Below are positions 40,628-54,430 of a stretch of DNA of 64,000 nt, piece after piece. Within the stretch, counting starts at the first letter, position 1, and the number at the start of each line of letters is the position of its first letter. Under the pieces are notes generated by a model. That model was given only the letters and a program-made list of their open reading frames with translations, did no database searches and was not told where the DNA came from. Origin of the DNA: Clostridiales bacterium (lineage in GTDB: Bacteria > Bacillota > Clostridia > Christensenellales > UBA1750); assembly GCA_015056005.1 (NCBI GenBank), contig SVHB01000003.1, forward strand, positions 2,283 through 66,282, read 5' to 3'. The position numbers and the translations under genes are program-made.

Positions 40628-41423
40628 AGTTCTTTTTCAGTTCGAATTCGTATAAGCTGTCCCAGTTTTTGCCGGTAATATATAGCCTGCCGTTTTCCTT
40701 ATCATAGGCAATGCCGTTTAAGACCGCGTCGGGATTTTCATAAACGATCTCGCTCAGACCCGAAAAATCGATCATATATTTTACTTCCCCGTTTTCGGGA
40801 TCGATCACGGCGATGCTCTGAGTCAGCCATATGTTTGCCCAAACAAGCCCATCGATGTATTCCAGCTCGTTTATGCGGTTTATCTCGATATCACCGAATT
40901 TGACGGTGATATTTTTTATGTCGTTTAAGTCCGCGTCCATAAAATAGAGCTTTGAAGTACCATCGGAGGCTATCAGCTGCTCGCCGTTGGTGGTGAGCCC
41001 CCAGCCTTCTCTGGGATAGGAAACGGTGTCGATAAGCGTAAGATTATCCGGGTCGAACTTAAACACCTGACCCTCCTGCCAGGAAAGAACATAGAGAGTA
41101 TTATCCATAACAACGCTGCCTTCGCCGAATATATTTGCGGGCAAAGAATACTCGCTTTCATATTGACCGGTTTTTATATCTATGTTTTTGAAAATTTTCG
41201 ACTGACCGTAAAGCCCGGTGGATTCGTACATTTCCCCGCCGTGGAAGAAAAGCCCCTGAGTAAAGGAAGAAGCGCTGTGAGGATAGGAACCGACAAGTTC
41301 GAGCTGTTCCGTATAATGTATCTCCCCGCCCTCGCCTTTTATCACAAAGCCTTCCTTTGCCGCGCAGCCGCAAAGGAGTGCGGATATCAGAATAAGGGCA
41401 ATTAATATTTTTGCAAGCTTCAT
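40626..41423 (-). CDS. glutaminyl-peptide cyclotransferase (beta-propeller type) lipoprotein
   Basis: MKLAKILIALILISALLCGC signal/lipobox. HSASSFTQGLFF..LYESTGLYGQS fits the plant/bacterial glutamine cyclotransferase family. Confidence 0.7.
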   Translation of the reverse strand: MKLAKILIALILISALLCGCAAKEGFVIKGEGGEIHYTEQLELVGSYPHSASSFTQGLFFHGGEMYESTGLYGQSKIFKNIDIKTGQYESEYSLPANIFGEGSVVMDNTLYVLSWQEGQVFKFDPDNLTLIDTVSYPREGWGLTTNGEQLIASDGTSKLYFMDADLNDIKNITVKFGDIEINRINELEYIDGLVWANIWLTQSIAVIDPENGEVKYMIDFSGLSEIVYENPDAVLNGIAYDKENGRLYITGKNWDSLYEFELKKN

Positions 41424-41551
41424 AAAAACGCTCCTTTTATTGCTATGTATAGAAGTATAGCAGATAAGAAAACAAAAATCCACTTGGCAAGTATTTTACT
41501 TGTGCAAAAAATATGTTATTATTTATATATCAAGAATATAAGGAGCATATT

Positions 41552-42829
41552 ATGAGAGCTGCAAGAGATATCAGAAGCAGGATCGCACCGCTGGAAGAAA
41601 AATTAAAACAGCGCCCCGGACTCTGGGAAATGTTTGAAAAATGCTTTATGAACACCGTCGAGACCACGGTTGAAACGGGTTTTGGCGATACGTTTATAAT
41701 CACAGGCGATATCCCCGCCATGTGGCTTAGGGATTCCACCGCGCAGGTCATGCATTATATGAGATTTTTGAACGTACAGAGCGTTGTGGAAATGATAGAA
41801 GGCCTTATCCTTCGCCAGATGAGCTGCCTTATGCATGACCCCTATGCCAATGCCTTCAATAAGGAAGCTTCCGAGTATAAGCCCTTTGACGATGAGCCCA
41901 AGGCTTCCGAGTGGGTCTGGGAGCGCAAATATGAAATAGACTCGCTCTGCTATCCCCTCTGGCTTGCGGAAAAGTTCGTGAGAGGCACAAACAGGACCCA
42001 TATCATCGGCAATATGGTCGTCGGCGGCATAATCACCATACTCAACGTGTTTGAAACCGAGCTCAGGCACGAAAACAGCCCCTACAGGTTTTCAAGGAAA
42101 AATTGCCCCGAAAGTGATACACTTTCTAACGACGGCATGGGCGCGCCCGTTGGCTATACGGGCATGACCTGGAGCGGCTTCAGGCCCAGCGATGACGCCT
42201 GCAAATACGGTTATCTCGTGCCCTCCAATATCTTTGCCGTAAGAGCGCTGGAATCTGCGGCGTTTTTGGCAAACACCATGGGCGAGACCGCGCTCATGGA
42301 AAAGGCGGTAGCCCTGAGAGATACCATCAAAAAAGGTATTGAGGACTATGCCGTTATCGATCATCCCGAGTTTGGCAAAATGTATGCCTATGAGGTAGAC
42401 GGTCTGGGAAATTATAACCTTATGGACGACGCAAACGTGCCCAGCCTGCTCTCACTGCCCTACCTCGGCACCTGCCCCATGGACGATGAGATCTATCTCA
42501 ACACCAGAAAGTTCGTTCTGAGCAAGAACAATCCCTATTATTTTGAGGGCGAAAAAGCCAAAGGCATCGGCAGCCCTCATACCCCCGACGGATATGTATG
42601 GCCTATCGCGCTTTGCATGCAGGCGATGACCGCTACTGATGACAACGAGATCAGAAGCATTGTCGATATGCTGCTTTCAACTCACGCGGATACCGGGTTC
42701 ATGCATGAAAGCTTTGATCCCAATAACCCCGAAAAATATACCAGAAGCTGGTTTGCATGGGCAAATTCCATGTTCGGAGAGCTGATCATGAGGCTCTATG
42801 AAGCCGATAAGCTCGATTGCTTGCTGTAA
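41552..42829 (+). CDS. GH125 exo-alpha-1,6-mannosidase-like protein
   Basis: TFIITGDIPAMWLRDSTAQV and later WERKYEIDS, NDGMG.., HESF motifs typical of GH125 (DUF1237). Confidence 0.8.
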   Translation: MRAARDIRSRIAPLEEKLKQRPGLWEMFEKCFMNTVETTVETGFGDTFIITGDIPAMWLRDSTAQVMHYMRFLNVQSVVEMIEGLILRQMSCLMHDPYANAFNKEASEYKPFDDEPKASEWVWERKYEIDSLCYPLWLAEKFVRGTNRTHIIGNMVVGGIITILNVFETELRHENSPYRFSRKNCPESDTLSNDGMGAPVGYTGMTWSGFRPSDDACKYGYLVPSNIFAVRALESAAFLANTMGETALMEKAVALRDTIKKGIEDYAVIDHPEFGKMYAYEVDGLGNYNLMDDANVPSLLSLPYLGTCPMDDEIYLNTRKFVLSKNNPYYFEGEKAKGIGSPHTPDGYVWPIALCMQAMTATDDNEIRSIVDMLLSTHADTGFMHESFDPNNPEKYTRSWFAWANSMFGELIMRLYEADKLDCLL

Positions 42830-42836
42830 ACAATAG

Positions 42837-42878
42837 AAAAAACGGTTTGAGGAAACTCAAACCGTTTTTGTGTTTTTT
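42837..42878 (+). terminator. intrinsic terminator after the GH125 gene
   Basis: Stem aacggtttgag/ctcaaaccgtt with a GAAA loop, followed by tttgtgtttttt. Confidence 0.7.
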
Positions 42879-43315
42879 GAGAGAAGGCGCTGCCTTCTCT
42901 CAAACTCTCATCCGCCAGAGGATTTCATCCTCTGGACTCCTGATACTTTGATAGAGCACAGCAAGCTATGCGTCGATGGCGGCGGCAGGAATGCCGCCAT
43001 CGAGAAGCACAAAGAAGAAATATCAGCGCTCATGGCACAGCATTCCCTAAAAGCAATTACGCGTGACCCATACTTTACGGGTCACGCGTAAGCCATCGTA
43101 TAAAATTTACTGATCCCAAAAGCCGCGGGATCCAAGGGTTGCAAACCCTTGGTGGATGAGGGTGTGGGAGAAGGCGAAGCCTTCTTCCACGTAAATAGCT
43201 AAAGAATAAAATCTATCTGCCAGAGGAAGAAAAATCTTTGGGAGAAGGCGAAGCCTTCTTCCAAGAAAGAGAGCTCAAGAGGGCGCAGCCATCTCGAACG
43301 TACCCCTCCCCCCGG
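42878..43315. repeat. mosaic hairpin-rich intergenic repeat, copy D (contains both orientations)
   Basis: The right part matches copy A closely (43058-43092 matches 17372-17406 at 34 of 35 positions by eye; hairpin 43132-43152; 74-bp tandem with starts 43166 and 43240; tail ..cgaacgtacccc). The left arm 42880-42945 is an inverted, diverged copy of 43120-43185. Confidence 0.8.
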
Positions 43316-43319
43316 CGCC

Positions 43320-44516
43320 TCACAGAAGATCCAGCATCGCGGGGAAGGGCTCGAGGCTGCGGCGGAGGATGCCGTGCATATGCGCTATGGCGATACCGTA
43401 GTTTACGATGGGGACACCGCTTTCCTGAGCGCGGGAAATGCGGTGCTGCATTTCGGCTTCGTTGAGCATGCAGCCGCCGCAGTGAACGATGACCTTGTAA
43501 GGTGAAAGATCATCGGGGAACTCGCCGCCGGAGGTGAAGGAAAACTCGGGCTTTGCGCCTGAGAAATTCTCTATCCAGCCCGGCATCTTGACAGTGCCGA
43601 TGTCGTTGCATTGCCTGTGATGGGTGCAGCCTTCGGAGATCAGGACCTTGTCGCCGTCCTTTAGCTCGGACAGAGCCGCTGCGCCTTTGACAAGCTCGGC
43701 AAGATCGCCCTTGTATCGAGCAAAAAGAATGGAGAACGAGGTAAGAGGAACTGAGGGGGGCACGAGCTTTGACACCTTGCCGAACGCCTGCGAATCAGTG
43801 ATGACAAGGCGGGGCGGAGCTTTGAGCATTGAAAGCGTCTTTGGGATATCAACATCCTGGCAAGCCATAACGGTGCAATGGGAATCCAGTATATCGCGCA
43901 TGGTCTGCTGCTGGGGCAGTATAAGCCTTCCCTTGGGGGCGGATTCGTCGATAGGGATTACCAGCAAAACGAGATCATCGGGAGAAAGAAGATCGGATAC
44001 GATATGCTTTTCGGGCTTGCTGCCGGCGAAAGAACCAAGCTTTTCCTTGAAAGCGTCGATGTTCTTCTTTGAAAGCGCGCTGACGTATATGCCGTTTTCG
44101 GGCAGCTCGGGCTCAGAGGATAAAAGATCGCATTTGTTGTACGCGATAATGTAGGGCAACTTGCGGGAGATGAACATATCGATGAGCTCTGAGTCCGCCT
44201 TGCTCAGTCCCAAGCAGGAATCGACAACAAGCACGGCAATGTCGGTCTGCGCAAGCACGCGCTTTGCTTTTTTGACGCGCTTTTCGCCAAGCTCGCCCTC
44301 ATCGTCTATGCCGGGAGTGTCGATTATGACCACGGGACCTAAGGGTAGAAGCTCCATGGACTTGCGTACAGGGTCGGTGGTGGTGCCCTTGACTGCGGAA
44401 ACTACGGAAAGCTCCTGCCCGGTCACGGCGTTCACAAGGCTGGATTTGCCCACGTTGCGCAGGCCGAAAAAGGCGATATGCAGCCTGTCGGAGGAAGGTA
44501 CTGCGTTTAAGCTCAT
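43320..44516 (-). CDS. hydF: [FeFe]-hydrogenase H-cluster maturation GTPase HydF
   Basis: G-domain FGLRNVGKSSLVNAVTG..GTTTDPV..DTPG..NKCD. C-terminal CTHH-(about 46 aa)-HCGGC matches the HydF CxHx46-53HCxxC cluster motif. AAGGAGG RBS. Confidence 0.85.
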   Translation of the reverse strand: MSLNAVPSSDRLHIAFFGLRNVGKSSLVNAVTGQELSVVSAVKGTTTDPVRKSMELLPLGPVVIIDTPGIDDEGELGEKRVKKAKRVLAQTDIAVLVVDSCLGLSKADSELIDMFISRKLPYIIAYNKCDLLSSEPELPENGIYVSALSKKNIDAFKEKLGSFAGSKPEKHIVSDLLSPDDLVLLVIPIDESAPKGRLILPQQQTMRDILDSHCTVMACQDVDIPKTLSMLKAPPRLVITDSQAFGKVSKLVPPSVPLTSFSILFARYKGDLAELVKGAAALSELKDGDKVLISEGCTHHRQCNDIGTVKMPGWIENFSGAKPEFSFTSGGEFPDDLSPYKVIVHCGGCMLNEAEMQHRISRAQESGVPIVNYGIAIAHMHGILRRSLEPFPAMLDLL

Positions 44517-44528
44517 TTGTTTGCCTCC

Positions 44529-45650
44529 TTAATCAAGAACGAAATCGCCCGCCTGAGCGGAAGGCGCAAAGATGGAAGAAGCCTGATCGTCGGTCAGATC
44601 GATCGAGAACACTTCCTTGTAATATTTCTTGGTTTCTTCAATTATGTCGATATCGTTGAAAAGCTCGGGGTACGCGGTTTTTGCAAGCCATAAAAGGGTC
44701 ACGGGAGTGTCTGCGCCTGCGGTGTAGGAGCGGTAAATGCCAAGGGGCATCTTGTGTACGTTTTTGCTTTCAACAGCCGATACGGGGCTCCAGTCGTAGC
44801 TGCCGATGGTGTTGTTGAAAAGGTCATCGGGATAAGCTGTGGTGAAGTTGGTGATAAAGATGAGGGTGGGATCCCATGCGTATACCTGCTCAAGGTTTAC
44901 CGATACGGAATTGTCGGTCGCAAGCTCCTCGCCCACGTTTTTTGCGCCGATCGCGTCAGCCCACCACTGTCCGAAGAACTGCTTGCCCGAGGTCAGCATG
45001 GTGTTTTCGGTGTACTGGAAAAGGAAGAACACCTTTTCACGCTGAGAATCGGGGATATCTTTAACTCTGGACTGAACAAGGTCATAAATATCGTCGGAAT
45101 AGGCTTTCACGGCGTCGGCCTTGTCGCTTACGGAGAATACCTCTTCAAGAAGCGTGATCCAGTTGTTCAGGGTCTCAATGGCGTTGTATTCCCATTTGTT
45201 TACGGAAACGGCGATGGCTGCAAAGCCCGCGCTCCTGAGCTGTTCACCCTGATCGGGCTGGGAGGCGCTGTAGAAAACAACATCGGGCGAAAGCTTCATG
45301 AGCTCCTCGGTGTTTACGGAAGAACCGTTGATGTAGCCCGTCTGCGCCGAAAGTATCTCGGGATAAAGCTCACTTAAAATGCTGCTCTTTGCCGCGAGCA
45401 TGCTGGGGGGCGCGATGCCCACAAGCTTGTCGGCGGAATCAAAGAACATGGCGATAACGGAGGGCAGAGGATAAATGTCCATGACAGCAACGCGGTTTAC
45501 CTCATTTGGGACTTCTACTTCGTTGCCAAGATGGTCAACAACGGTGTGCGTGCCGGGTGACGCGCTTTCGATTTGAAAAGAACAGGCACCAAGGGTCAGG
45601 AGCATGGAAAGTACGAGAAAAACGGCAGTCAGTTTTTTGATAAGCTTCAT
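44529..45650 (-). CDS. ABC transporter substrate-binding lipoprotein, metal-chelate type (Peripla_BP_2-like)
   Basis: Signal sequence plus lipobox LTLGAC. The pattern VEVPNEVNRVAV.., NTEELMKLSPDVVF, EQVYAWDPTLIF is typical of siderophore/haem/B12-type binding proteins. Confidence 0.8.
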   Translation of the reverse strand: MKLIKKLTAVFLVLSMLLTLGACSFQIESASPGTHTVVDHLGNEVEVPNEVNRVAVMDIYPLPSVIAMFFDSADKLVGIAPPSMLAAKSSILSELYPEILSAQTGYINGSSVNTEELMKLSPDVVFYSASQPDQGEQLRSAGFAAIAVSVNKWEYNAIETLNNWITLLEEVFSVSDKADAVKAYSDDIYDLVQSRVKDIPDSQREKVFFLFQYTENTMLTSGKQFFGQWWADAIGAKNVGEELATDNSVSVNLEQVYAWDPTLIFITNFTTAYPDDLFNNTIGSYDWSPVSAVESKNVHKMPLGIYRSYTAGADTPVTLLWLAKTAYPELFNDIDIIEETKKYYKEVFSIDLTDDQASSIFAPSAQAGDFVLD

Positions 45651-45654
45651 ATAA

Positions 45655-46797
45655 TTACACCTCGCTTATGATAGTTTGTGCGTCTTTTGCAAGATCGGGG
45701 ATGGATCGGCGGTATATCCTGCCGGAGAAAGCCTCGTGAGGCAGGGGAATGAACTTTGCGCCTTCCGGAACTATGCGCCTGTACAGGGGATCCGCGATCA
45801 CGACCGATGCATCCTTTATAAAGTCAAGGATATAATCTTCGTCGTGCAAAACAGCGTCCTTATCCCTTAAAAGGGAAGGATCAAATTCGGTGGCGCAGGA
45901 GACTTTGGTTCCCTTGCCTGTTTCAAGCTCGATCGCCGATGCAAGGGAAAGGGAGCGCACTCCCTCGCCGATGATAACGATATCTCCCTCAAGAGCTGCA
46001 TCGTTTTTGCAGACGATGTTTTCGCAGCTGCTTACCGCCTTATCAAGAGCGCGCCTTAGCTGATCGGAGTATTTTTTTCCTGTCGGGGTACCGATGACAT
46101 AAGGAGTGCCGAAATTTTCAAAAAGCGTTTTCGCGGCCGAAAGACCTGCGGATGAGACAACGAGGTTCACATGTGCCGCGCCGATGTTTTTGATATCCTC
46201 GATATCACAACCCATGGCAAGAGAGCAGTTGATGGAAAAACCGCTGCTTTCAAGGAACGCGGCTATGGACTTGTCCTCGCCGTTTACGGAGAAATCAAGT
46301 GGGGTAAGCCCTAAAATATTTGCGCTCCTGTATTCGCTCTTTTTTACGTTTTTGTCCATAAAGCGGCGAACGATGCCGTCAAAGGCCATGGACGCACCCG
46401 AAATGTAGGTGCCCATGCCGCCGGTGGAAAAGCCGAGAGCCGGAATGCCTAAGCGGGCTTCAATAATATTTGCAGCTGCAGTATAGTCAAAGCCGGTCAT
46501 CATGGGTATGGGAGTACCTGCAAGGGCGATAAACTTCGGCTTGAGCTCATTTGCTGCGGTGATTATATCTAAAATGAGCTTTTCATCATCGCCCATGATC
46601 GCTTCCATTTCGGAAAGACCGGAAATGTATACCATGCTCTCCATGTCGTACCATCTGGGCTCATCGTGGGTGGTGTAGGTGGAATTGCAGCCTGAAGCGT
46701 CATGCATGACTACCATGCCGCCCAGCTCAAAAAGCGCCGAGCATACGCCGAAAACATCCGCAGAATAAGTGGAGATCACGCTTGAAGTCTGTCTCAT
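45655..46797 (-). CDS. nitrogenase component-1-type oxidoreductase subunit (NifK/N/BchB-like)
   Basis: VVMHDASGCNSTY (compare the HGxxGC motif of the family), three Rossmann-like segments, about 380 aa. ATG at 46797 overlaps the upstream stop (ATGA); an alternative GTG lies at 46809. Confidence 0.7.
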   Translation of the reverse strand: MRQTSSVISTYSADVFGVCSALFELGGMVVMHDASGCNSTYTTHDEPRWYDMESMVYISGLSEMEAIMGDDEKLILDIITAANELKPKFIALAGTPIPMMTGFDYTAAANIIEARLGIPALGFSTGGMGTYISGASMAFDGIVRRFMDKNVKKSEYRSANILGLTPLDFSVNGEDKSIAAFLESSGFSINCSLAMGCDIEDIKNIGAAHVNLVVSSAGLSAAKTLFENFGTPYVIGTPTGKKYSDQLRRALDKAVSSCENIVCKNDAALEGDIVIIGEGVRSLSLASAIELETGKGTKVSCATEFDPSLLRDKDAVLHDEDYILDFIKDASVVIADPLYRRIVPEGAKFIPLPHEAFSGRIYRRSIPDLAKDAQTIISEV

Positions 46798-48122
46798 ATA
46801 CAGCCGCACCCCATTCCTTTTATCTGGATCAGATTTCTCATGTCCTTTTCGTTTTCATATGCGTCGATCATAAGCGCACAAAGCTTTTCGATGGCTTCAA
46901 AATCGTACATTCCCCCGCCCTCGACAATGTTTACAAACCTGTTTGTGCCGCAAAAATGAGCCGCCTTCTGCCCTATTGCAAGAATACTGTTGTTTTCTTT
47001 TTCCGCCATGAAGCGCATGGAGGAATGGACCGTGGGATAAAGCTCAAGCTCCGGGTGATTTTCCTTCAGGTATTCAAAATCCGCCTTTTCAAGGGGAATG
47101 AAGGTGTCGGCATAAACGCGCTGCACGTTGAAACCGTGCTCCAAAAGCAGCCTTGCAAGCGCAAGGGGACGGGGCAGCGCTGTGTAGTCTATTGCAATCG
47201 GGGTATCGCCGATGATCTGTTTTGCATGCTCAAGCGCTTTTTCGCATTTTTGGCGAAGAAGGGCAAAATCGGGGAGCGGGCAGGAGAGCACTCCTGCAAG
47301 CTCTTTCAGGTTTTTCTCGATCTCATCGTAGGAAAGCGCGAAGGGCAGGAAAATATGCCTGCCGCCGAGCCTTTCTTCCAGCATATCGCCGCCTGCCTTT
47401 GCGGGGGGATAATAGGAGATGTAAAGCGAGGATTTTGCCATATCCTGATATTCCTCGTAGGTGGAGCACCTTGTGATCTCCATAAGGTTTTTCCCCGCAG
47501 AGCGGATCATTTTGACGAGCTGGCTTTCATCGTCGGTGGAAAAATCATTGCCGATTATGGATACCGTGTTTTCATCGATATTATTTGGCTTTAAGAGTGT
47601 ATAGAGCCTTGAACGCATGAGCTGATCAGGGGTGAGCCCGCTCTTTCTCATGATGGGGTTCATGTAGCAGTCGGTGAAATCGATATCGGGATGCATTTGC
47701 CTCAGCCTTTGGTATACCATGTCAAGGTCGCAGCCTGCAAAATGATGCACGCAGGAGGTGTATACAAGGATAGCGGGCGGACGTTTCTTAAGCTTTTTTA
47801 TTATGTCGGACACGCCGTCTACGATAAGGTCTTCAAGATCGCCGTCAAGCAGATTGTTTTCCTTTATCTCGACCGTGGAGAATCTGTCCTCCATACCGCA
47901 TTCTGCGGCTGTCAATACAACGCCTCTTAAACAGGACGCTGCGCAGACGAAGATCTCGTGAGCCTCAGGGATGAGCATGCCCACATGAACGATGTTCCAG
48001 GTGCCCCTTGCGGGGGAAGCATATTCAAGCCCCGAGCGGAAGGGTGAGGGGAAGGAAGCTTCTCCTATTATTCTTTTTGCGGCGGAAAGATCGCGGTCGT
48101 CGTTTACTCTTTTGAGCATCAT
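46794..48122 (-). CDS. nitrogenase component-1-type oxidoreductase subunit (NifD/E/BchN-like)
   Basis: Cys motifs [15 protein letters not shown] and [13 protein letters not shown] at spacings like the family's cluster ligands, about 441 aa. The start is ambiguous (48122 ATGA overlap, or 48134). Confidence 0.7.
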
Positions 48123-48877
48123 TCCACCCCGCATTCTTTGAGCATCGCCTTGGCGAGATTTCGGTATTCCTCAGCCATATCGCTTTGAGGGAACGCTTCA
48201 ACTACGGTTTTTGCAAGCGACTCGGCTTCCTGTACCGTTTCGCTTCTTGTGAGAGTGCCGATGACCTTGCTGCTTATATCGCCTGCCAGTTCTTCGACCT
48301 TTTCATCCTCGTTTTTGACGTTCCTGCGGTTTAAGATCAGACCGCCCAGCGCTGCATAGCCCCTGTCCTTAAAGCCGTTTACCGCCATTGCGATATTGGC
48401 AGCGGCGTGGATGGCCATGTTTTCGCCCGAGGTGATTATAAATACCTTATCCGCATAGCCGCTGCGCATCGGCATGGTAAAACCGCCGCAGACAACGTCG
48501 CCCAGAACGTCATAGATAACTACGTCGGGCTTATAGGTTTCGTAAGCGCCCTTTTCCTTCAGCTTTTCAAGCGCGGCGATGATGCCTCTGCCCGCGCAGC
48601 CAAGACCCGGGGTGGGGCCGCCGGCTTCCACGCATATAACGCCGCCGAAGCCTTCCCTTACCATATCGGAAAGCTCGAAAGCGTCCTTTTTTTCGCGGAC
48701 GAGATCAAGCACGGTGGTCATTTTTTCATAGCCGTGCAGAGCGTAGGTGGAATCCGCCTTGGGATCGCAGCCTATCTGCATGACCTTATAGCCCATCTGA
48801 GAAAGAGCTGCGGAAACATTGGAGACGGTGGTGGATTTGCCGATGCCGCCTTTTCCGTATACTGCGATTTTTATCAT
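48119..48877 (-). CDS. NifH/BchL/CfbC-family ATP-dependent reductase (iron-protein homologue)
   Basis: [15 protein letters not shown]-loop, CDPKADST switch I, and both [4Fe-4S] ligand contexts GLGCAGRG and LGDVVCGGF. The AAGGAGGA RBS lies in the end of hydE. Confidence 0.85.
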
Positions 48878-49930
48878 TTAAGCTTCCTCCTTTTTGTAAT
48901 CGCCCCTGCCTATGATGACCTCATAGCCGATCTCTTCCATCTGAGAGCGCAGAAGGGCGATGCCTTCCTTTGCCGATATTTCTGTGCCTGCTTTGTCGTT
49001 GTAGAGCATATACTTTTTGCGGACGGACATGGGCGAGAGGTTGGGCATAACTACATTGCAGCCAAAGAGCACTCCCAGCTTTCTTCCGTCCTGATCTGCG
49101 GTGCCAAGCGCTGTGGTGGCCGGCATCATGACATTTGGGAGCATTATGCGGCAAAGCGCCATCATAAGAAGGGTGGTATTCACGCTCCCGGAGGGCGCAT
49201 CGCCAAAGGGTGTATCCTTGTGGGGGATAAAGGGGCCTATACCCACCATCGCGGGGTCGAATTTCTGCATAAACACCATGTCATCGGCAAGGTGGGATGC
49301 GGTCTGGAAAGGTGTGCCCACCATGCAGCCGCAGCCGACCTGATAGCCTATGTCTTTTAAGTCATAAAGGCAGCGGATGCGGTTTTTAAGGCTCAGCTCC
49401 TTTGGGTGAATGAGGGAATAATGCTCCTCGTTTGCCGTTTCATGGCGCAGAAGGTATCTGTTCGCGCCCGCATCAAAAAGCTTTTTGTAGGAATCATAGC
49501 TTCTTTCACCAAGAGAGAGGGTGATGGCGCAGTCGGGATATTCCTCCTTTATGGATGATACGATATCGCACATCCTGTCGTCGGAAAAATAACCGTCCTC
49601 GCCGCCCTGAAGCACGAAGGTCCTGAAGCCGTTTTCATAGCCTTCCCTGCAGCAGGCAAGTATGTCCTGCTTTTCAAGGCGATAGCGCTGAGCGCAGGCA
49701 TTGCTTTTTCTGATGCCGCAGTAATAGCAGTCGTTTTTGCAGATGTTTGAAAATTCGACTATACCGCGGAAATATATCTTCCTGCCGAAAATTCTTTGTG
49801 ATATTTCCAAGGCATGAGTCTGAGCATGGGCAAGGTCGTCCGGAGTATAGGTTGAAATAATTTGCTCAAACTCCTTATGCGAAAGCTGTTTTTCGTCTTT
49901 GAGCTTGTTTATGAGTTCGATGTTTGTCAT
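48878..49930 (-). CDS. hydE: [FeFe]-hydrogenase H-cluster radical SAM maturase HydE
   Basis: EFSNICKNDCYYCGIR, VLQGGED, AGANRYLLRHETAN, MVGIGPFIPHKDTP, PATTALGT and CNVVMPN match Thermotoga HydE blocks as I recall them. Confidence 0.85.
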   Translation of the reverse strand: MTNIELINKLKDEKQLSHKEFEQIISTYTPDDLAHAQTHALEISQRIFGRKIYFRGIVEFSNICKNDCYYCGIRKSNACAQRYRLEKQDILACCREGYENGFRTFVLQGGEDGYFSDDRMCDIVSSIKEEYPDCAITLSLGERSYDSYKKLFDAGANRYLLRHETANEEHYSLIHPKELSLKNRIRCLYDLKDIGYQVGCGCMVGTPFQTASHLADDMVFMQKFDPAMVGIGPFIPHKDTPFGDAPSGSVNTTLLMMALCRIMLPNVMMPATTALGTADQDGRKLGVLFGCNVVMPNLSPMSVRKKYMLYNDKAGTEISAKEGIALLRSQMEEIGYEVIIGRGDYKKEEA

Positions 49931-50997
49931 TTGTGCTGCTCCGTATCCTTTTGATAGACTGTCTTGACGCTGACTGAGGGTATGAGCGATAGTCTGTGGG
50001 AGAGCTCCTCAATGCGGCTCTTTTTGCCGTCAAAGGTGGTGTTTATGATAAACACGTTCCTTTTTCTGTAGGGCATGCCCATCCTGCCGATTATTATATC
50101 GCCGTACTCATGCAGCAGGGCGTTGATATGATTTGCTTTTTCAAAATCGTCAGCGATTATGGTGATGGATGCGAGCGCGTCTTCATCATCGCTTTTCTCT
50201 ATGAGCGCGTTATCGTCGGAAAGCTTTAAGGGCACGACGTTTTTGAATACGCTGTGCGGGGTCTCGATCTCGCCTATTATCGCCTTGACTCCGAAGGTGC
50301 GCTCTATGTTTTCTTCGGTCAGAACCTGAGAAGTGGAACCGAATATCGTTTTGCCGCCCGAGAGTATGAGCGATCTGTCCGCTCTTTGCAGGGCGTGCTC
50401 CGGGTAATGGGTGTTGAATATGCAGCATATGCCGTCTGAGGCAAGCCTGCTTATGGTGTTAAGAACTATGAGCTGATTTTTGAAATCGAGGTTGGATTCG
50501 GGCTCATCCAGAATGAGTATTTGGGGGTCGGATACAAGCGCTCTTGCTATCAGCACCATCTGAAGCTCGCCGCCGCTCATTTTGCTCAGGGGCTTATCAC
50601 GAAGGTGGGCTATGGAAAGCTCTTCAAGCACGCTTTCGGCCTTTTCGATATCATGCTTCCCGGGTGAGGAGAAAAGCGAAAGGTTGCTGCTCCTGCCGAT
50701 CAGCACTGTCTCAAGCGCGCTGTAGGAGGTCGCGGCACCCCTTGCCTGAGGTACGTAGCTCATTATGCCCCAGAGCTTTTTTTCTCCCATTCTGCGGATA
50801 TCGCTTCCGTCGATAAGGCTCTTTCCGTCCTTCCATTTGAGCATGCCCGTCATGCACCTGAGCAGTGTGGTCTTGCCTGCGCCGTTGGGGCCCAATATAG
50901 CCAGCAGTTCGCCCGAGGAAACGGAAAAGTTTACGTCCGAAAAAACATCTTTCTTGTTGTCGTAGGAGAATCTGCCGCCTTTTACTTCAAGTATCAC
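49927..50997 (-). CDS. ABC transporter ATP-binding protein (FepC/FecE-type) with C-terminal TM1266-type ACT-like domain
   Basis: GPNGAGKTTLL, LSGGELQ and ILILDEPESNLD motifs. The last 85 aa or so align without gaps to the product of 52017-52274 (LHEYG..IIGRMG.PYR...VKT.Y). A GTG at 50997 gives a GTGA overlap and 9-nt spacing from GGGAGG; an alternative TTG lies at 51006. Confidence 0.85.
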   Translation of the reverse strand: MILEVKGGRFSYDNKKDVFSDVNFSVSSGELLAILGPNGAGKTTLLRCMTGMLKWKDGKSLIDGSDIRRMGEKKLWGIMSYVPQARGAATSYSALETVLIGRSSNLSLFSSPGKHDIEKAESVLEELSIAHLRDKPLSKMSGGELQMVLIARALVSDPQILILDEPESNLDFKNQLIVLNTISRLASDGICCIFNTHYPEHALQRADRSLILSGGKTIFGSTSQVLTEENIERTFGVKAIIGEIETPHSVFKNVVPLKLSDDNALIEKSDDEDALASITIIADDFEKANHINALLHEYGDIIIGRMGMPYRKRNVFIINTTFDGKKSRIEELSHRLSLIPSVSVKTVYQKDTEQHK

Positions 50998-52013
50998 AGC
51001 TGCCAACCTCCCGATTTTCTCATAAGGTAAATGAAGAACGGTGCGCCGATGATCGCGGTGAGTATGGATATCGGGATATCGGCTGCGGAAACAGACCTTG
51101 CAATTGTGTCAACGATCAGCATGAACGATGCGCCGAAGCTTATCGATGCGGGAACAAGCGACATATGGTTGCTGGAAAACTTCATTCTGCACATATGCGG
51201 CACAAGAAGACCCACCCAGCCGACCTGACCGCACATGGATACGCAGGATGCGGTCATGAGCGTTGCGCATATAACGGTCACGGCGCGAAGCCTTTTGATG
51301 TTTACGCCCGAGGATCTTGCCTCATCCTCGGACAGCGGCAGAAGGTTCATTCTCCATCTGAGAAGGAAGAGCACGCATATCCCAAGCAATATGGGCGGTG
51401 CGCCGTAGATAAGGCTTTCATAGCTTGCATTGCTCAAACTGCCCATGAGCCAGTAGGTGATCGCGGGAAGCTGGGACTCTGCGTCGGCCACGAACTTTAT
51501 GAGCGATACGAGCGCCGAGAACAGCGAACCTATCATGATGCCCGAAAGCACCACGGAAGAAAGCCCTTTGCCCCTGCCTGAGCCAGCGGCCCATGTCATC
51601 AAAACTGCGGCTGCGCCGAAAATGAAGGAGGTGATCTGTATTCCGAGCATCTTAAAGCCTATCAGTATGCCAAACGCCGCGCCGAAGCTTGCGCCGCTGG
51701 CAACGCCTAAGGTGTCGGGAGTGGCAAGCGGGTTTGCAAAAAGGCTCTGGAACGCGCAGCCCGCGCAGGAAAGCCCCATGCCCGCAAGCAGCGCCAGAAG
51801 TATTCTGGGTATGCGGATGTTGACTATGGTGCTCATGACCATTTTATCGACAAGCTGCTGCCCGGTTATCTTTGATATTATCGCTTTTATAGTATCAACA
51901 GGGGTTATCCAGATCCTGCCCGAGCCAAGAGCGATGATCGAAAGGACGATGGGAAATACGATAAGAAAAATTATCCATGGTGCGGAAAGCCTTCCGCCGC
52001 TGCTGTTTTTCAT
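50994..52013 (-). CDS. ABC transporter permease, FecCD family
   Basis: LLAGMGLSCAGCAFQSLFANPLATPDTLGVASGASFGAA and multiple TM segments typical of FecCD/BtuC. Confidence 0.85.
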   Translation of the reverse strand: MKNSSGGRLSAPWIIFLIVFPIVLSIIALGSGRIWITPVDTIKAIISKITGQQLVDKMVMSTIVNIRIPRILLALLAGMGLSCAGCAFQSLFANPLATPDTLGVASGASFGAAFGILIGFKMLGIQITSFIFGAAAVLMTWAAGSGRGKGLSSVVLSGIMIGSLFSALVSLIKFVADAESQLPAITYWLMGSLSNASYESLIYGAPPILLGICVLFLLRWRMNLLPLSEDEARSSGVNIKRLRAVTVICATLMTASCVSMCGQVGWVGLLVPHMCRMKFSSNHMSLVPASISFGASFMLIVDTIARSVSAADIPISILTAIIGAPFFIYLMRKSGGWQL

Positions 52014-52016
52014 AGC

Positions 52017-52274
52017 TTATGCCTTTGTGATAACATTGGAGTATGCGGTCTTGACCGTCACGCCCTCGAGCGTTCCGATCTTTCCCGAAAGCGCCGCGAT
52101 GGTGTTCTGGGGAGCGTCGATGGCGATAGAGATGATGTTTACCTTCTTCTCTCGGTAGGGGATGCCCATCCTGCCGATTATGAACATGCCGTATTCATGA
52201 AGGATGGAGTTGAGCTGCTCAACCGAGTTTGGATTTTCCACTATAATGCTGATGACCGCTACTCTTGTTTCCAT
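52017..52274 (-). CDS. TM1266-type small ACT-like protein (family annotated as putative iron-only hydrogenase system regulator)
   Basis: 85 aa starting METRVAVISIIVEN after GAAAGGAAG. LHEYGMFIIGRMGIPYR core. The family is known for clustering with hydE/F/G. Confidence 0.7.
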   Translation of the reverse strand: METRVAVISIIVENPNSVEQLNSILHEYGMFIIGRMGIPYREKKVNIISIAIDAPQNTIAALSGKIGTLEGVTVKTAYSNVITKA

Positions 52275-52301
52275 TTTATATCTTCCTTTCGGTATTTTGG
52301 T

Positions 52302-52340
52302 AAAATAAAAATCGCTGTACCCATAAAAAGGTACAGCGAT
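52302..52340 (-). terminator. intrinsic terminator inside the 5' leader of the hyd/nif-like operon (attenuator)
   Basis: The minus strand reads atcgctgtacc-tttttat-ggtacagcgat followed by ttttatttt, 27 nt upstream of the first start codon. No upstream same-strand gene exists for it to terminate. Confidence 0.55.
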
Positions 52341-52429
52341 AAAGCATGACAAATATATCATGATAAAGCCTGTTCGCCGCACCTTTCAGTCAGAAACCTT
52401 TCGGGATCTTTATGTCAGGCACCTGTATC

Positions 52430-52458
52430 ATTATACTATATTTTCTCGTTTATGTAAA
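52430..52458 (-). promoter_or_regulatory. sigma-70-type promoter of the hyd/nif-like operon
   Basis: The minus strand reads TTTACA-17 nt-TATAAT (tttacataaacgagaaaatatagtataat). Confidence 0.6.
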
Positions 52459-52545
52459 GAAGGCGCTTTACCAATTATTCCTTGACAGCAAAACACCGCT
52501 TAGTGTATCTTTATATCATACGAAGCGCCTTTGAAAGGAGCAAAG

Positions 52546-53349
52546 ATGAATAAACTTGTAAGGGCTGCCGTTGTGCTTATCGCGCTTTCGGTGATGTCTA
52601 TATCCGGCTATAAGCTTCTGGAAATATTTTCCGAGTACAGGCAAGGTGAAAACGTGTATATCGGCGCGCTGGATGAGTTCGTTTTAAGCGAAAGCACCAA
52701 AGCTCCCGATAAAAACACGGATACCATTGACGGACCGAGCCGCACCATGCCGCCAAGGACTGAGGATGTTTTCAAAAAAGAGGTTCCAATCGAGATAGAT
52801 TTTGATTCGCTGATACAAAAATACCCCGATGTTATCGGCTGGATATACTGTGAGGATACGCCCATTAATTACCCTGTCGTGCAGGCGGACGATAACGATC
52901 ATTATCTTTACCGCACCTATAACGGGCAGGACAACAAGGCCGGCTCCATATATGCCGATTTCAGGAATTCCGCAGATTTTTCCGATCTGAATACGCTCAT
53001 ATACGGGCATAACATGAAGAACGATTCCATGTTCGGCACGCTGAAGGATTATTATAAACAGGAATATTATAACGAGCATCCCGTGATCTGGCTGCTCACG
53101 CCCGAAAAGAATTACCGCCTTGACCTTCTGGCGGGAAAGATCGTGGATGTTTCAAGCGATGCATATACGCTTTTTGAAGACGGGGACGAGTTTTCGGAGC
53201 ATGTAGAATGGCTGATGAAAAGGTCTTCTTTTGAGGCGAATGTCGACGCGGAAAGCGTCGAAAGAATAGTTACTCTTTCCACCTGTACATCTGCAGGGGA
53301 TGACGACGAAAGATATATTGTGGCATGTGCGCTGGTGGAAATTGATTAG
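52546..53349 (+). CDS. srtB: class B sortase
   Basis: N-terminal TM anchor, IGWIY..TPINYPVVQ, GSIYADFRN, LIYGHNMKNDSMFG, and catalytic TLSTC. Confidence 0.8.
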   Translation: MNKLVRAAVVLIALSVMSISGYKLLEIFSEYRQGENVYIGALDEFVLSESTKAPDKNTDTIDGPSRTMPPRTEDVFKKEVPIEIDFDSLIQKYPDVIGWIYCEDTPINYPVVQADDNDHYLYRTYNGQDNKAGSIYADFRNSADFSDLNTLIYGHNMKNDSMFGTLKDYYKQEYYNEHPVIWLLTPEKNYRLDLLAGKIVDVSSDAYTLFEDGDEFSEHVEWLMKRSSFEANVDAESVERIVTLSTCTSAGDDDERYIVACALVEID

Positions 53350-53359
53350 GAGGGATATC

Positions 53360-54430
53360 ATGCGCATAGAAGAGCTCGATAAAAACCTGAAGGTAGAAAC
53401 TAAGATAAACAAAGATGATATTATCTGGCTTTCGCCAAAGGAAGCGCCTTTTGTGATATACGGGCTTTGCGGAAACGGGTCGGATCTGCCCTATCACAGA
53501 GTGCCCAAGGACGTGGCGGAAAAAACCAGCGAGGGCGTTAAAAATCTTGCGTGGCATACCGCAGGCGGCAGGGTGCGCTTTGCGACCGATTCACCCTATA
53601 TCGCCATAAAGGCAGTAATGCCCAAAACTGCTACCATGGTGCATATGACCAAGGCGGGTCAGTCCGGTTTTGACCTTTATGAAGACGTTGACGGCGCTCC
53701 TGCGTATTATTCGACCTTTATGCCCATATCGGGCGTGACTGATGGTTACGAATCGCTGGCGGAAATGAAAAATCCGAGGATGACGACCTATTCCATAAAC
53801 ATGCCGCTCTATGACGGAGTAAATGAGCTGTATATCGGTCTGAAGCAGGGCTCTCAGATAGCTGCGCCCAGAAAATACAAGCACGAAAAGCCGGTGCTTT
53901 ATTACGGCTCTTCAATAACGCAGGGCGGCTGCGCGTCCCGACCGGGCAATTCATATCAGGCGATGATAGAGCGCATGCTGGATACTGATTACATAAACCT
54001 CGGCTTTTCCGGAAATGCAAAGGGCGAGGAGGTCATGGTGAACTACCTTGCCTCCCTTGATGTTTCCGTGTTTGTCTGCGATTATGACCATAACGCACCT
54101 AATGTCGAGCACCTGAGCAAAACTCATCTGCCTCTTTACCGCGCTTACAGGGAAGCGAACCCAAAAACTCCCATAGTTTTTGTTACCCGTCCCGATTTTT
54201 ACAGATATTCGCAAAGCGCCGATTCACCCGACAGGCGCAAGGTGGTATACGATACCTATATGACCGCCAAAAACGAGGGCGATGAAAACGTGTACTTCAT
54301 CGACGGCGAGACATTGTTTGAAGGACCGCTCAGGGATTCCTGCACTGTCGACGGCTGCCATCCCAACGACCTCGGCTTTTTCAGAATGGCGCAGGTAATA
54401 GGAAAAGTGATCAAAAATATAATAGATTAA
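53360..54430 (+). CDS. SGNH/GDSL-type hydrolase family protein
   Basis: YYGSSITQGG (block I Ser), GFSGNA and DGCHPND (block V D..H). AGGAGGG RBS. Confidence 0.75.
   Translation: MRIEELDKNLKVETKINKDDIIWLSPKEAPFVIYGLCGNGSDLPYHRVPKDVAEKTSEGVKNLAWHTAGGRVRFATDSPYIAIKAVMPKTATMVHMTKAGQSGFDLYEDVDGAPAYYSTFMPISGVTDGYESLAEMKNPRMTTYSINMPLYDGVNELYIGLKQGSQIAAPRKYKHEKPVLYYGSSITQGGCASRPGNSYQAMIERMLDTDYINLGFSGNAKGEEVMVNYLASLDVSVFVCDYDHNAPNVEHLSKTHLPLYRAYREANPKTPIVFVTRPDFYRYSQSADSPDRRKVVYDTYMTAKNEGDENVYFIDGETLFEGPLRDSCTVDGCHPNDLGFFRMAQVIGKVIKNIID

Follow-up and report, generated by a model that had tools for sequence, protein, structure and literature searches.

A TM1266-type domain fused to the ATPase of a type II ABC importer in a clostridial operon of hydrogenase-maturation and nitrogenase-like genes

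We describe an ATP-binding cassette (ABC) ATPase that carries a TM1266-type domain at its C-terminus, encoded in a 64,000-nucleotide stretch of a Clostridiales bacterium genome (assembly GCA_015056005.1, contig SVHB01000003.1, positions 2,283 to 66,282; hereafter the window). Its gene is a single open frame of 359 codons in the list of open reading frames (ORFs; 49927-51006, minus strand) and shares an operon with a gene for a free 85-residue protein of the same family (52017-52274, minus strand). When the last 87 residues of the ATPase are aligned to the free protein by BLASTP, 32 of 77 positions are identical (42%) and 49 of 77 are positive, without gaps and with an E value of 3e-22, which agrees with the roughly 31 of 74 identities counted by hand in the initial annotation, where it was proposed that the domain occurs in this operon both free and fused. 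Profile searches place the two segments in one family: Pfam PF21699 (TM1266-like) matches residues 279-349 of the ATPase with 68.9 bits (E 3.7e-19) and the free protein with 111.8 bits, and NCBIfam TIGR03959 yields 76.7 and 116.6 bits, respectively, all above the curated cut-offs (27 bits for PF21699 and 60.8 bits for TIGR03959). The tail sequence also retrieves the T. maritima TM1266 structure from the PDB (2nzc, E 6.6e-8), and in the whole 2.5-Mb, 94%-complete genome the tail and the free protein are the only two PF21699 matches. The ATPase tail is thus a genuine TM1266-type, ACT/NikR-like domain. The positions originally given for it are correct but the strand is minus; all genes of this stretch lie on that strand, and plus-strand translation at those coordinates runs into stop codons.

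Structural modeling shows a tail that is predicted to fold independently at the end of a disordered linker of ~13 residues. In the AlphaFold model of the ATPase (predicted local distance difference test score, pLDDT, 83.1), the ATPase domain extends to about residue 262 and linker residues 265-272 have pLDDT values below 50; columns ~301-325 in an alignment of 30 full-length relatives (alignment A1) are gap-rich and variable, and the tail modeled alone reaches a pLDDT of 89.6. The tail model superimposes on chain A of 2nzc with template-modelling (TM) scores of 0.81/0.92 and a root-mean-square deviation (rmsd) of 1.2, and a second structure search returned 2nzc with a Z score of 14.5 over 79 residues (rmsd 1.0). 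Next are the C-terminal domains of NikR (Z 11.4-11.8, rmsd 1.8-2.2 over 80-84 residues, TM ~0.75) and ACT domains from acetohydroxyacid synthase regulatory subunits and RelA (Z ~10.5); the sequence profile of the TM1266 family finds no NikR or ACT chain. The motif N..LH.Y..GRMGxPY..D..VK is invariant in the tails, in the free copies, and in both combined, which fits a tail and a free copy that may sense the same kind of ligand.

The fusion is real, recurrent, conserved and rare. (Labels are those of this analysis: G denotes genomes, G000 being the window's; L, loci, including metagenome loci; P, database proteins.) A word-indexed search with residues 255-359 returned 139 proteins at E <= 1e-3, and 114 of the 120 listed among them contain PF00005 together with PF21699 (350-413 residues), the other six being pieces of 211-288 residues. 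The 30 full-length relatives in A1 show 54-64% identity, and both their catalytic motifs and their tail motif are invariant. The tailed frame is open, with the ATPase domain immediately upstream, in seven genomes (G000, G033, G297, G367, G752, G647 and G756), and the same holds for 12 of 80 metagenome loci. An assembly or annotation artefact, in which a missed stop codon or a frameshift joins two genes, was a concern of the initial annotation; it is ruled out by the uninterrupted frame and by the recurrence of the architecture in these 7 genomes and 12 loci from different assemblies and in 114 of the 120 listed protein clusters, leaving it a practically negligible probability.

Full-length profile searches found a close orthologue of the ATPase in 11 of 401 genomes sampled from the order, four of them tailed (G000, G033, G297 and G367), and in 16 of 400 genomes sampled from the class, again with four tailed (G000, G752, G647 and G756). 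These counts come from the full-length profile and inspection, as a tail search at E 1e-12 misses the divergent tails of G297 and G367 (32% identity). A scan of the genome collection with the full-length A1 alignment was discarded: it picks up generic Walker motifs and unrelated ABC ATPases (best 46% identity). PF21699 itself is present in 244 of the 401 order-sample genomes, so that the fused form represents a minor branch of a family that is itself common. Searched exhaustively with phmmer against 1.84 billion representatives, the tail gave 781 matches at E <= 1e-3; a Pfam scan of 18 of the top 150 identified three full-length ABC fusions, three ABC fragments, one FecCD-fragment chimera, one GNAT fusion and one piece joining TM1266 to a radical S-adenosylmethionine (SAM) domain. 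The combination of PF00005 and PF21699 has already been recorded by database pipelines, and a literature search (main texts and, in part, titles and openings of abstracts) found no paper that describes it.

The operon context of the fusion is also recurrent. In the window, nine tightly packed genes follow one another in the order free TM1266 protein, FecCD permease, ATPase-TM1266 fusion, HydE, NifH-like ATPase, NifD/E-like subunit, NifK/N-like subunit, Peripla_BP_2 lipoprotein and HydF, and this order is repeated in G033, G297, G367 and the metagenome locus L156. Variants occur: in G752 the free TM1266 copy is not nearby, G647 and G756 are missing HydE between the ATPase and NifH, G743 and G238 pair an untailed ATPase with HydF and the free TM1266 protein downstream, and in G505 an untailed ATPase adjoins HydE. 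Each of the seven genomes with a tailed ATPase has one free copy, which heads the same operon in five. A distant Nif-like/importer cluster (NifD ~30% identical) without Hyd genes or TM1266 is found in G023, G696, G678, G625, G733 and G531, and tails are also present on this distant cluster type in the metagenome loci L172 and L187.

The ATPase is the motor of a type II importer, similar to the BtuCD, HmuUV and MolBC systems. Its Walker A (GPNGAGKT), signature (SGGE.Q), Walker B (LDEPE) and H-loop (H200) elements are invariant in the 30 relatives of A1, and the closest solved relatives of the ATPase part are HI1470 (MolC; 2nq2_C, E 4.1e-41), HmuV, BhuV and BtuD. Structural comparison with type II motors gives TM scores of 0.83-0.92 normalised to the target. 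The top-ranked solved nucleotide-binding domains of this type are ~250 residues long and stop where the tail linker starts, and none carries such a domain. The partners match the same class, namely a FecCD/BtuC-type permease and a class III binding protein (Table 1), the latter marking the transport system as an importer.

We propose that the tail is a ligand-responsive regulator of the importer ATPase, a reading that we would give an even chance of being correct. According to this proposal, the two ATPase subunits of each transporter would contribute two tails, and these would pair upon binding a cytoplasmic effector, possibly joining a dimer of the free protein in a NikR-like tetramer. The effector site would be the shared N..LH.Y..GRMGxPY..VK surface. 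Pairing of the tails would lock the two ATPase domains in a state unable to close on ATP, so that import would be throttled post-translationally, as in the trans-inhibition of MetNI and ModBC, while the free copy would sense the same effector and act on HydE, on the NifH-like ATPase, or on expression. The content of the operon suggests that the effector may be an iron- or H-cluster-precursor-related metabolite. We infer ligand-gated control because a tethered, conserved domain of sensor type sits on the motor, because a homologous free protein accompanies it, and because MetNI and ModBC provide a precedent. In passages of a 2014 review, the regulatory domains of MetN, ModC and MalK are described as blocking closure of the ATPase dimer when ligand-bound, the C-terminal domain of ModE and the regulatory domain of ModC share a common fold and both bind molybdate, and regulatory domains are described for type I importers only (PMC4245157). 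Among the titles and abstract openings covered by our literature search, none reports a type II importer with a regulatory domain.

Complex prediction bears both on this proposal and on a rival one. Two tails modeled with two free copies obtained a score of 0.46, versus 0.15 for the best of three controls, and the runs showed contact agreement of at least 21% and partner pLDDT values of at least 83. The mark that was passed is also passed by 116 of 157 solved complexes and by 2 of 215 mismatches; at scores of 0.60 or less it is passed by only 18 of the 157 solved complexes and by both mismatches. Because all the chains share homology, with 2nzc (an entry of four chains) as well as among themselves, the pass may reflect likeness alone, and it lends a predicted hetero-oligomer of tails and free copies weak support. 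The same weak result also counts for the rival reading, in which the tail would sense no ligand and would instead be a docking or adaptor domain that brings the free TM1266 protein, the Nif-like complex, HydE or HydF to the cytoplasmic side of the importer, so that imported cargo is channelled directly to the operon's enzymes. Consistent with docking, the operon genes are all translationally coupled, small proteins of this fold that dock to transporters exist (SbtB stands at rank 36 of the fold matches), and database entries have TM1266 joined or adjacent to HydE, NifH-like proteins or HypE. When longer forms of the free protein were sought, 111 matches with several architectures came up, including TM1266 with HydE (P0314, 431 residues, HydE 564.6 bits), TM1266 with a NifH-like protein (P0292 and others; the NifH part of P0292 is 72% identical to the window's), HypE with TM1266 (P0326 and others, HypE 410.5 bits) and a second, free-like ABC fusion (P0341); the HydE and NifH-like partners are proteins encoded in the window operon, which counts in favour of the regulatory proposal as well. 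Against docking, the strict surface motif is common to tails and free copies from very different operons, among them the canonical TM1266-HydE-HydG-HydF arrangement and a TM1266 gene with an NMT1-type ABC importer, and a motif shared across such differing operons is better accommodated by a common small ligand than by many protein partners. We consider a docking role unlikely.

Among these joined entries, P0326, P0301, P0313, P0292, P0364 and P0314 connect TM1266 to HypE (the [NiFe]-hydrogenase cyanide-ligand enzyme), to a NifH-like protein or to HydE, and the single frame of P0364 combines the end of an AIRS_C domain with TM1266 and NifH. A tblastn search with the HypE part of P0326 (E <= 1e-5) found no HypE in the window's genome.

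The nearest characterised fold to the tail is the nickel-binding domain of NikR, and the importer belongs to the metal-chelate class; together with conserved His, Met and Asp residues in or close to the motif, this raises the alternative that the tail would bind the transported metal at the cytoplasmic exit and serve as a chaperone or buffer instead of a switch. NikR is defined by nickel ligands from a conserved His/Cys set and by a ribbon-helix-helix domain at its N-terminus. Its ligand set is not kept in the TM1266 domain, which has no invariant cysteine and no sequence-profile link to NikR, and the free domain is also found in operons without a metal importer. A role as metal acceptor is, on this analysis, rather improbable. 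The tail could also be a neutral or structural appendage, a fused copy of a neighbouring gene that helps the ATPase dimer cohere or has no role; untailed orthologues of the ATPase are indeed commoner than tailed ones, and the fused protein P0341 resembles a recent loss of a stop codon in which the initiator methionine was kept. However, the A1 tails keep their invariant positions down to 54% overall identity, and a long branch parts the tail clade from the free copies with the motif retained, which argues for selection on function and makes a neutral appendage very unlikely.

The evolutionary origin of the tail was examined with domain trees. The first of these, built from 34 tails and 31 free copies over 80 columns, has a single branch that splits tails from free copies (Shimodaira-Hasegawa-like approximate likelihood ratio test, SH-aLRT, 82), and because the two groups fall on opposite sides of it, the window's tail is not a recent copy of its neighbour. 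In a tree with more tails, the free-like tails of L159, L172/L187 and P0341 nest within the free clade, requiring three changes, and P0341 retains the MET.. start of the free protein after its linker. It is therefore possible that the fusion arose more than once, which would be a point in favour of the proposed regulatory role.

Several observations weigh against these readings. An approximately unbiased (AU) test leaves a single tail clade standing (p 0.54), so repeated fusion is not established by the domain tree. With regard to gating, untailed close orthologues outnumber tailed ones (the tail is lacking in 7 of the 11 order-sample genomes with such an orthologue, and in 12 of the 16 from the class sample) and are also present in the Hyd-linked clusters of G743, G505 and G238; as close orthologues work without it, the tail is dispensable for transport. 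T. maritima TM1266 reads LRVGYPV where the clostridial proteins have GRMGxPY, so the motif is not universal, and a single histidine is invariant, in tails only. The missing invariant cysteine and nickel ligands noted above count here as well. The complex-prediction tool rates passes of this kind as more often wrong than right unless the complex was likely beforehand. The TM1266 segments of the NifH-joined P0313 and the HypE-joined P0326 are identical, which means that some of the joined entries may have arisen by reading through a row of HypE, TM1266 and NifH genes. Finally, the word 'regulator' in the family label is only putative, and the literature search found no experimental paper on TM1266 function.

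The features of the operon are collected in Table 1. The nine genes are translationally coupled: the permease stop overlaps the GTG start of the ATPase within GTGA, and the stop of the ATPase overlaps the start of HydE within ATGA. For the ATPase, GTG 50997 (356 residues) is a more likely start than the TTG at 51006 chosen by the ORF finder, since GGAGG lies 9 nucleotides upstream, the GTG overlaps the permease stop, and a 99%-identical database protein has 356 residues. For the free TM1266 protein, the 85-residue start at ATG 52274, preceded by AGGAAG, is preferred; a longer ORF of 121 residues would cross a terminator-like hairpin. The NifH-like ATPase scores below the cut-offs of true NifH and CfbC. 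In the NifD/E-like subunit, Cys64, 68, 128, 156 and the C-terminal Cys443 (GCGC motif) are kept in 15 of 16 relatives, and in the NifK/N-like subunit Cys23 is kept in 15 of 16 and Cys41 in all 16, a pattern that fits candidate Fe-S cluster sites. The binding protein is a putative lipoprotein by the lipobox rule.

Table 1. Features of the nine-gene operon, in the order of transcription (window coordinates)
Feature	Coordinates	Strand	Remarks
Promoter-like site TTTACA-17-TATAAT	52430..52458	-	11/12 consensus matches; ahead of operon
Terminator-like hairpin and T-run in ~155-nt leader	52311..52340	-	just 5' of free TM1266 start; candidate attenuator
Free TM1266-family protein, 85 aa, first operon gene	52017..52274	-	PF21699 111.8, TIGR03959 116.6 bits
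FecCD/BtuC-type permease (type II ABC importer), 339 aa	50994..52013	-	PF01032 279.8 bits
ABC ATPase nucleotide-binding domain, residues 1-262	50221..51006	-	PF00005 113.4 bits
Flexible linker, residues 263-275	50182..50220	-	low pLDDT; length varies among relatives
C-terminal TM1266-like domain, residues 276-351	49954..50181	-	beta-alpha-beta-beta-alpha-beta; profiles and model
Short C-terminal extension and TGA stop	49927..49953	-	stop overlaps HydE ATG (ATGA)
Radical-SAM maturase HydE, 350 aa	48878..49930	-	TIGR03956 539.1 bits, cut-off 254.6; sole copy in genome
NifH-like ATPase	48119..48877	-	PF00142 299.4 bits; TIGR01287 327.1 bits, cut-off 394
NifD/NifE-like subunit	46794..48134	-	PF00148 59.5 bits
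NifK/NifN-like subunit	45655..46809	-	PF00148 103.5 bits
Substrate-binding lipoprotein (Peripla_BP_2)	44529..45650	-	PF01497 55.9 bits; N-terminal signal ends LTLGAC
GTPase HydF, 398 aa, last operon gene	43320..44516	-	TIGR03918 551.7 bits, cut-off 325.55; sole copy over cut-off
Two terminator-like hairpins closing operon	43057..43132	-	16-pair stem 43091-43057, 7-pair stem 43132-43112

The leader of the operon is a candidate attenuator or riboswitch-like element, as judged from its predicted folding and from comparison with related leaders. It folds with an energy of -47.4 kcal/mol (z -4.62), and the leaders of G033 and G647 also contain a CCTGACA box and a hairpin. Rfam matched no known RNA family in the leader, its only match in 41000-54000 being a sub-threshold Clostridiales-2 at 42889-42949. 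The promoter-like site ahead of the leader rests on a consensus match in a region that is overall no richer in such sites than shuffled sequence. The leader elements lie at 52275-52460 of the window, L147:11945-12150 and L145:11593-11800, all on the minus strand, with the CCTGACA box ~115-170 nucleotides 5' of the TM1266 start. Among 88 distinct upstream regions of free TM1266 genes, CCTGACA occurs in 6, and CTGACA at -105 to -178 in 11; the carriers all belong to the subclade closest to the window's free copy, regardless of the gene that follows.

The gene content of the operon raises a second question, namely how it relates to maturation of [FeFe]-hydrogenase. No HydG above the cut-off was found in any of the 10 genomes (completeness 84-100%) that contain a Hyd-linked Nif-like/importer cluster (G000, G033, G297, G367, G752, G647, G756, G743, G505 and G238), which are related and thus not independent; TM1266-positive relatives outside this cluster set have HydG in 13 of 24 cases. 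The six genomes in which HydE, HydF and [FeFe]-hydrogenase were searched as families (G000, G033, G743, G505, G752 and G647) all have genes of each, with HydE and HydF as single copies in five and two HydE in G505; for G297, G367, G238 and G756, the maturase genes were seen as cluster-linked copies in the loci (by tblastn or family scan). The operon position between HydE and HydF is occupied here by the Nif-like genes and the binding protein, and by HydG in canonical operons. One interpretation is that the operon represents a HydG-independent branch of H-cluster biosynthesis, in which the HydG slot would go to a nitrogenase-like NifH/NifEN-type complex together with a metal-chelate importer of type II, which would supply or process an iron precursor, and the free and ATPase-fused TM1266 domains would adjust the import of a pathway intermediate that they sense. 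We think this unlikely. Three genomes (G004, G015 and G016) have TM1266-HydE-HydF without either HydG or Nif-like genes, and G023 has HydG plus the distant Nif-like/ABC cluster without Hyd genes, both of which speak against replacement of HydG. The literature search, as far as titles, abstract openings and main texts were covered, found no nitrogenase-like genes linked to HydE and HydF together.

The absence of HydG has a wider distribution. HydG above the cut-off is missing in 13 of 26 TM1266-positive relatives; the observation refers to G000 and to the relatives G002, G004, G005, G011, G015, G016, G022, G024, G029, G034 and G035. The expectation that every HydG-less TM1266-positive relative would have a Nif-like cluster failed, as only G000 and G033 do. 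In G004, G015 and G016, the TM1266-HydE-HydF row leaves no gap for HydG, and species of the same genus have TM1266 followed by HydG. The presence/absence polymorphism of HydG looks real, and an earlier paper already remarks that hydG is missing in some Clostridium acetogens (PMC9431212). The two HydE of G505 that exceed the cut-off (G505:C99 and G505:C92) lie one in the Nif-like/importer cluster and one beside HydF, so that in some lineages the HydE of the cluster may be a functional paralogue.

Elsewhere, TM1266 members are typically free proteins of ~76-160 residues, and the operons that it heads in relatives are usually of the form TM1266-HydG or TM1266-HydE-(HydG)-HydF. In 8 of the 80 metagenome loci, the free gene heads TM1266-HydE-NifHDK-like clusters that lack a transporter. 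In L170, L174, L182, L190, L198, L200, L216 and L226, a TM1266-HydE-NifH-NifD-NifK-like row is followed by a second NifH(-NifD-NifK)-like set and no ABC importer is present; clusters with two Nif-like sets form a further recurrent link of HydE and TM1266 to nitrogenase-like genes. Another 23 of the 80 loci share one tblastn signature, and in the one examined (L205:9998-13557, plus strand) a free TM1266 gene is the first of an operon for a type I ABC importer with an NMT1/SsuA-like binding protein and a BPD_transp_1 permease; its ATPase is ~31-34% identical to the window's, an HTH_3 protein comes next, and there are no Hyd genes. The TM1266-SsuA-like pairing is also found in G002 (L113) and G221 (L108). 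As TM1266 heads SsuA-type importer operons, the family is not confined to hydrogenase loci. Shewanella HydX was considered as a TM1266 relative and dropped, as it is a 23.9-kDa protein.

The tail would bring a new fold class to ABC regulatory domains and place such a domain on a new class of transporter, within an operon that is itself unstudied. A few type I systems (MetNI, ModBC and MalFGK) are known to be gated post-translationally through C-terminal domains, and if the proposed role is correct, the tail would add a new regulatory class, a NikR/ACT-like domain acting on a metal-chelate importer of type II, and offer the first functional handle on the widespread, uncharacterised TM1266 family. 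In genomes without HydG, the fusion connects this widespread 'hydrogenase regulator' domain with both a transporter and a nitrogenase-like system, and the TM1266 ligand would bear both on the control of H-cluster assembly and on the role of the nitrogenase-like/importer cluster in HydG-less gut and rumen Clostridia.

Comparison with known systems places the tail in the TM1266 family (2nzc, PF21699 and TIGR03959, the latter named 'putative iron-only hydrogenase system regulator'), whose cut-offs it passes and whose fold it matches; the tail and the free protein are both encoded beside HydE and HydF. It departs from the usual members, which are free and neighbour HydG, in that it forms the C-terminus of an ATPase in a genome where no HydG exceeds the cut-off. 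The ATPase, together with its FecCD permease and Peripla_BP_2 partners, resembles HI1470 (MolC), HmuV, BhuV and BtuD, which have no tail. The initial annotation, whose interpretation is partly supported, compared the tail with the MetN C2/NIL and ModC TOBE domains; the logic that it proposed has a precedent in ModC/ModE, but the ATPase has no match at E <= 0.01 to any Pfam model for NIL, TOBE or ACT domains. Like the tail, MetN C2 is small, of alpha/beta type and placed at the C-terminal end of an ABC ATPase, and a whole-chain superposition of the ATPase model on MetN (3tui_D) spans both parts (368 columns, rmsd 12.9); MetNI, however, is a type I importer, in contrast to the type II system of the window, and no MetN chain is among the 50 listed fold matches of the tail, a list from which absence does not exclude a match. 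The TOBE domains of ModC and MalK are beta-sandwiches on type I importers, whereas the window tail is modeled as beta-alpha-beta-beta-alpha-beta. In our analysis the tail is thus best regarded as a TM1266 member and not as a member of the MetN C2 or TOBE families, although its working may be likened to both. The C-terminal domain of NikR, its nearest characterised fold, tetramerises and senses metal; the tail has no counterpart of the ribbon-helix-helix DNA-binding domain of NikR. ModC and ModE offer a parallel to the window's pair, with one ligand-binding fold both on a transporter ATPase and in a separate regulator, except that ModE has a DNA-binding domain and the free TM1266 protein does not.

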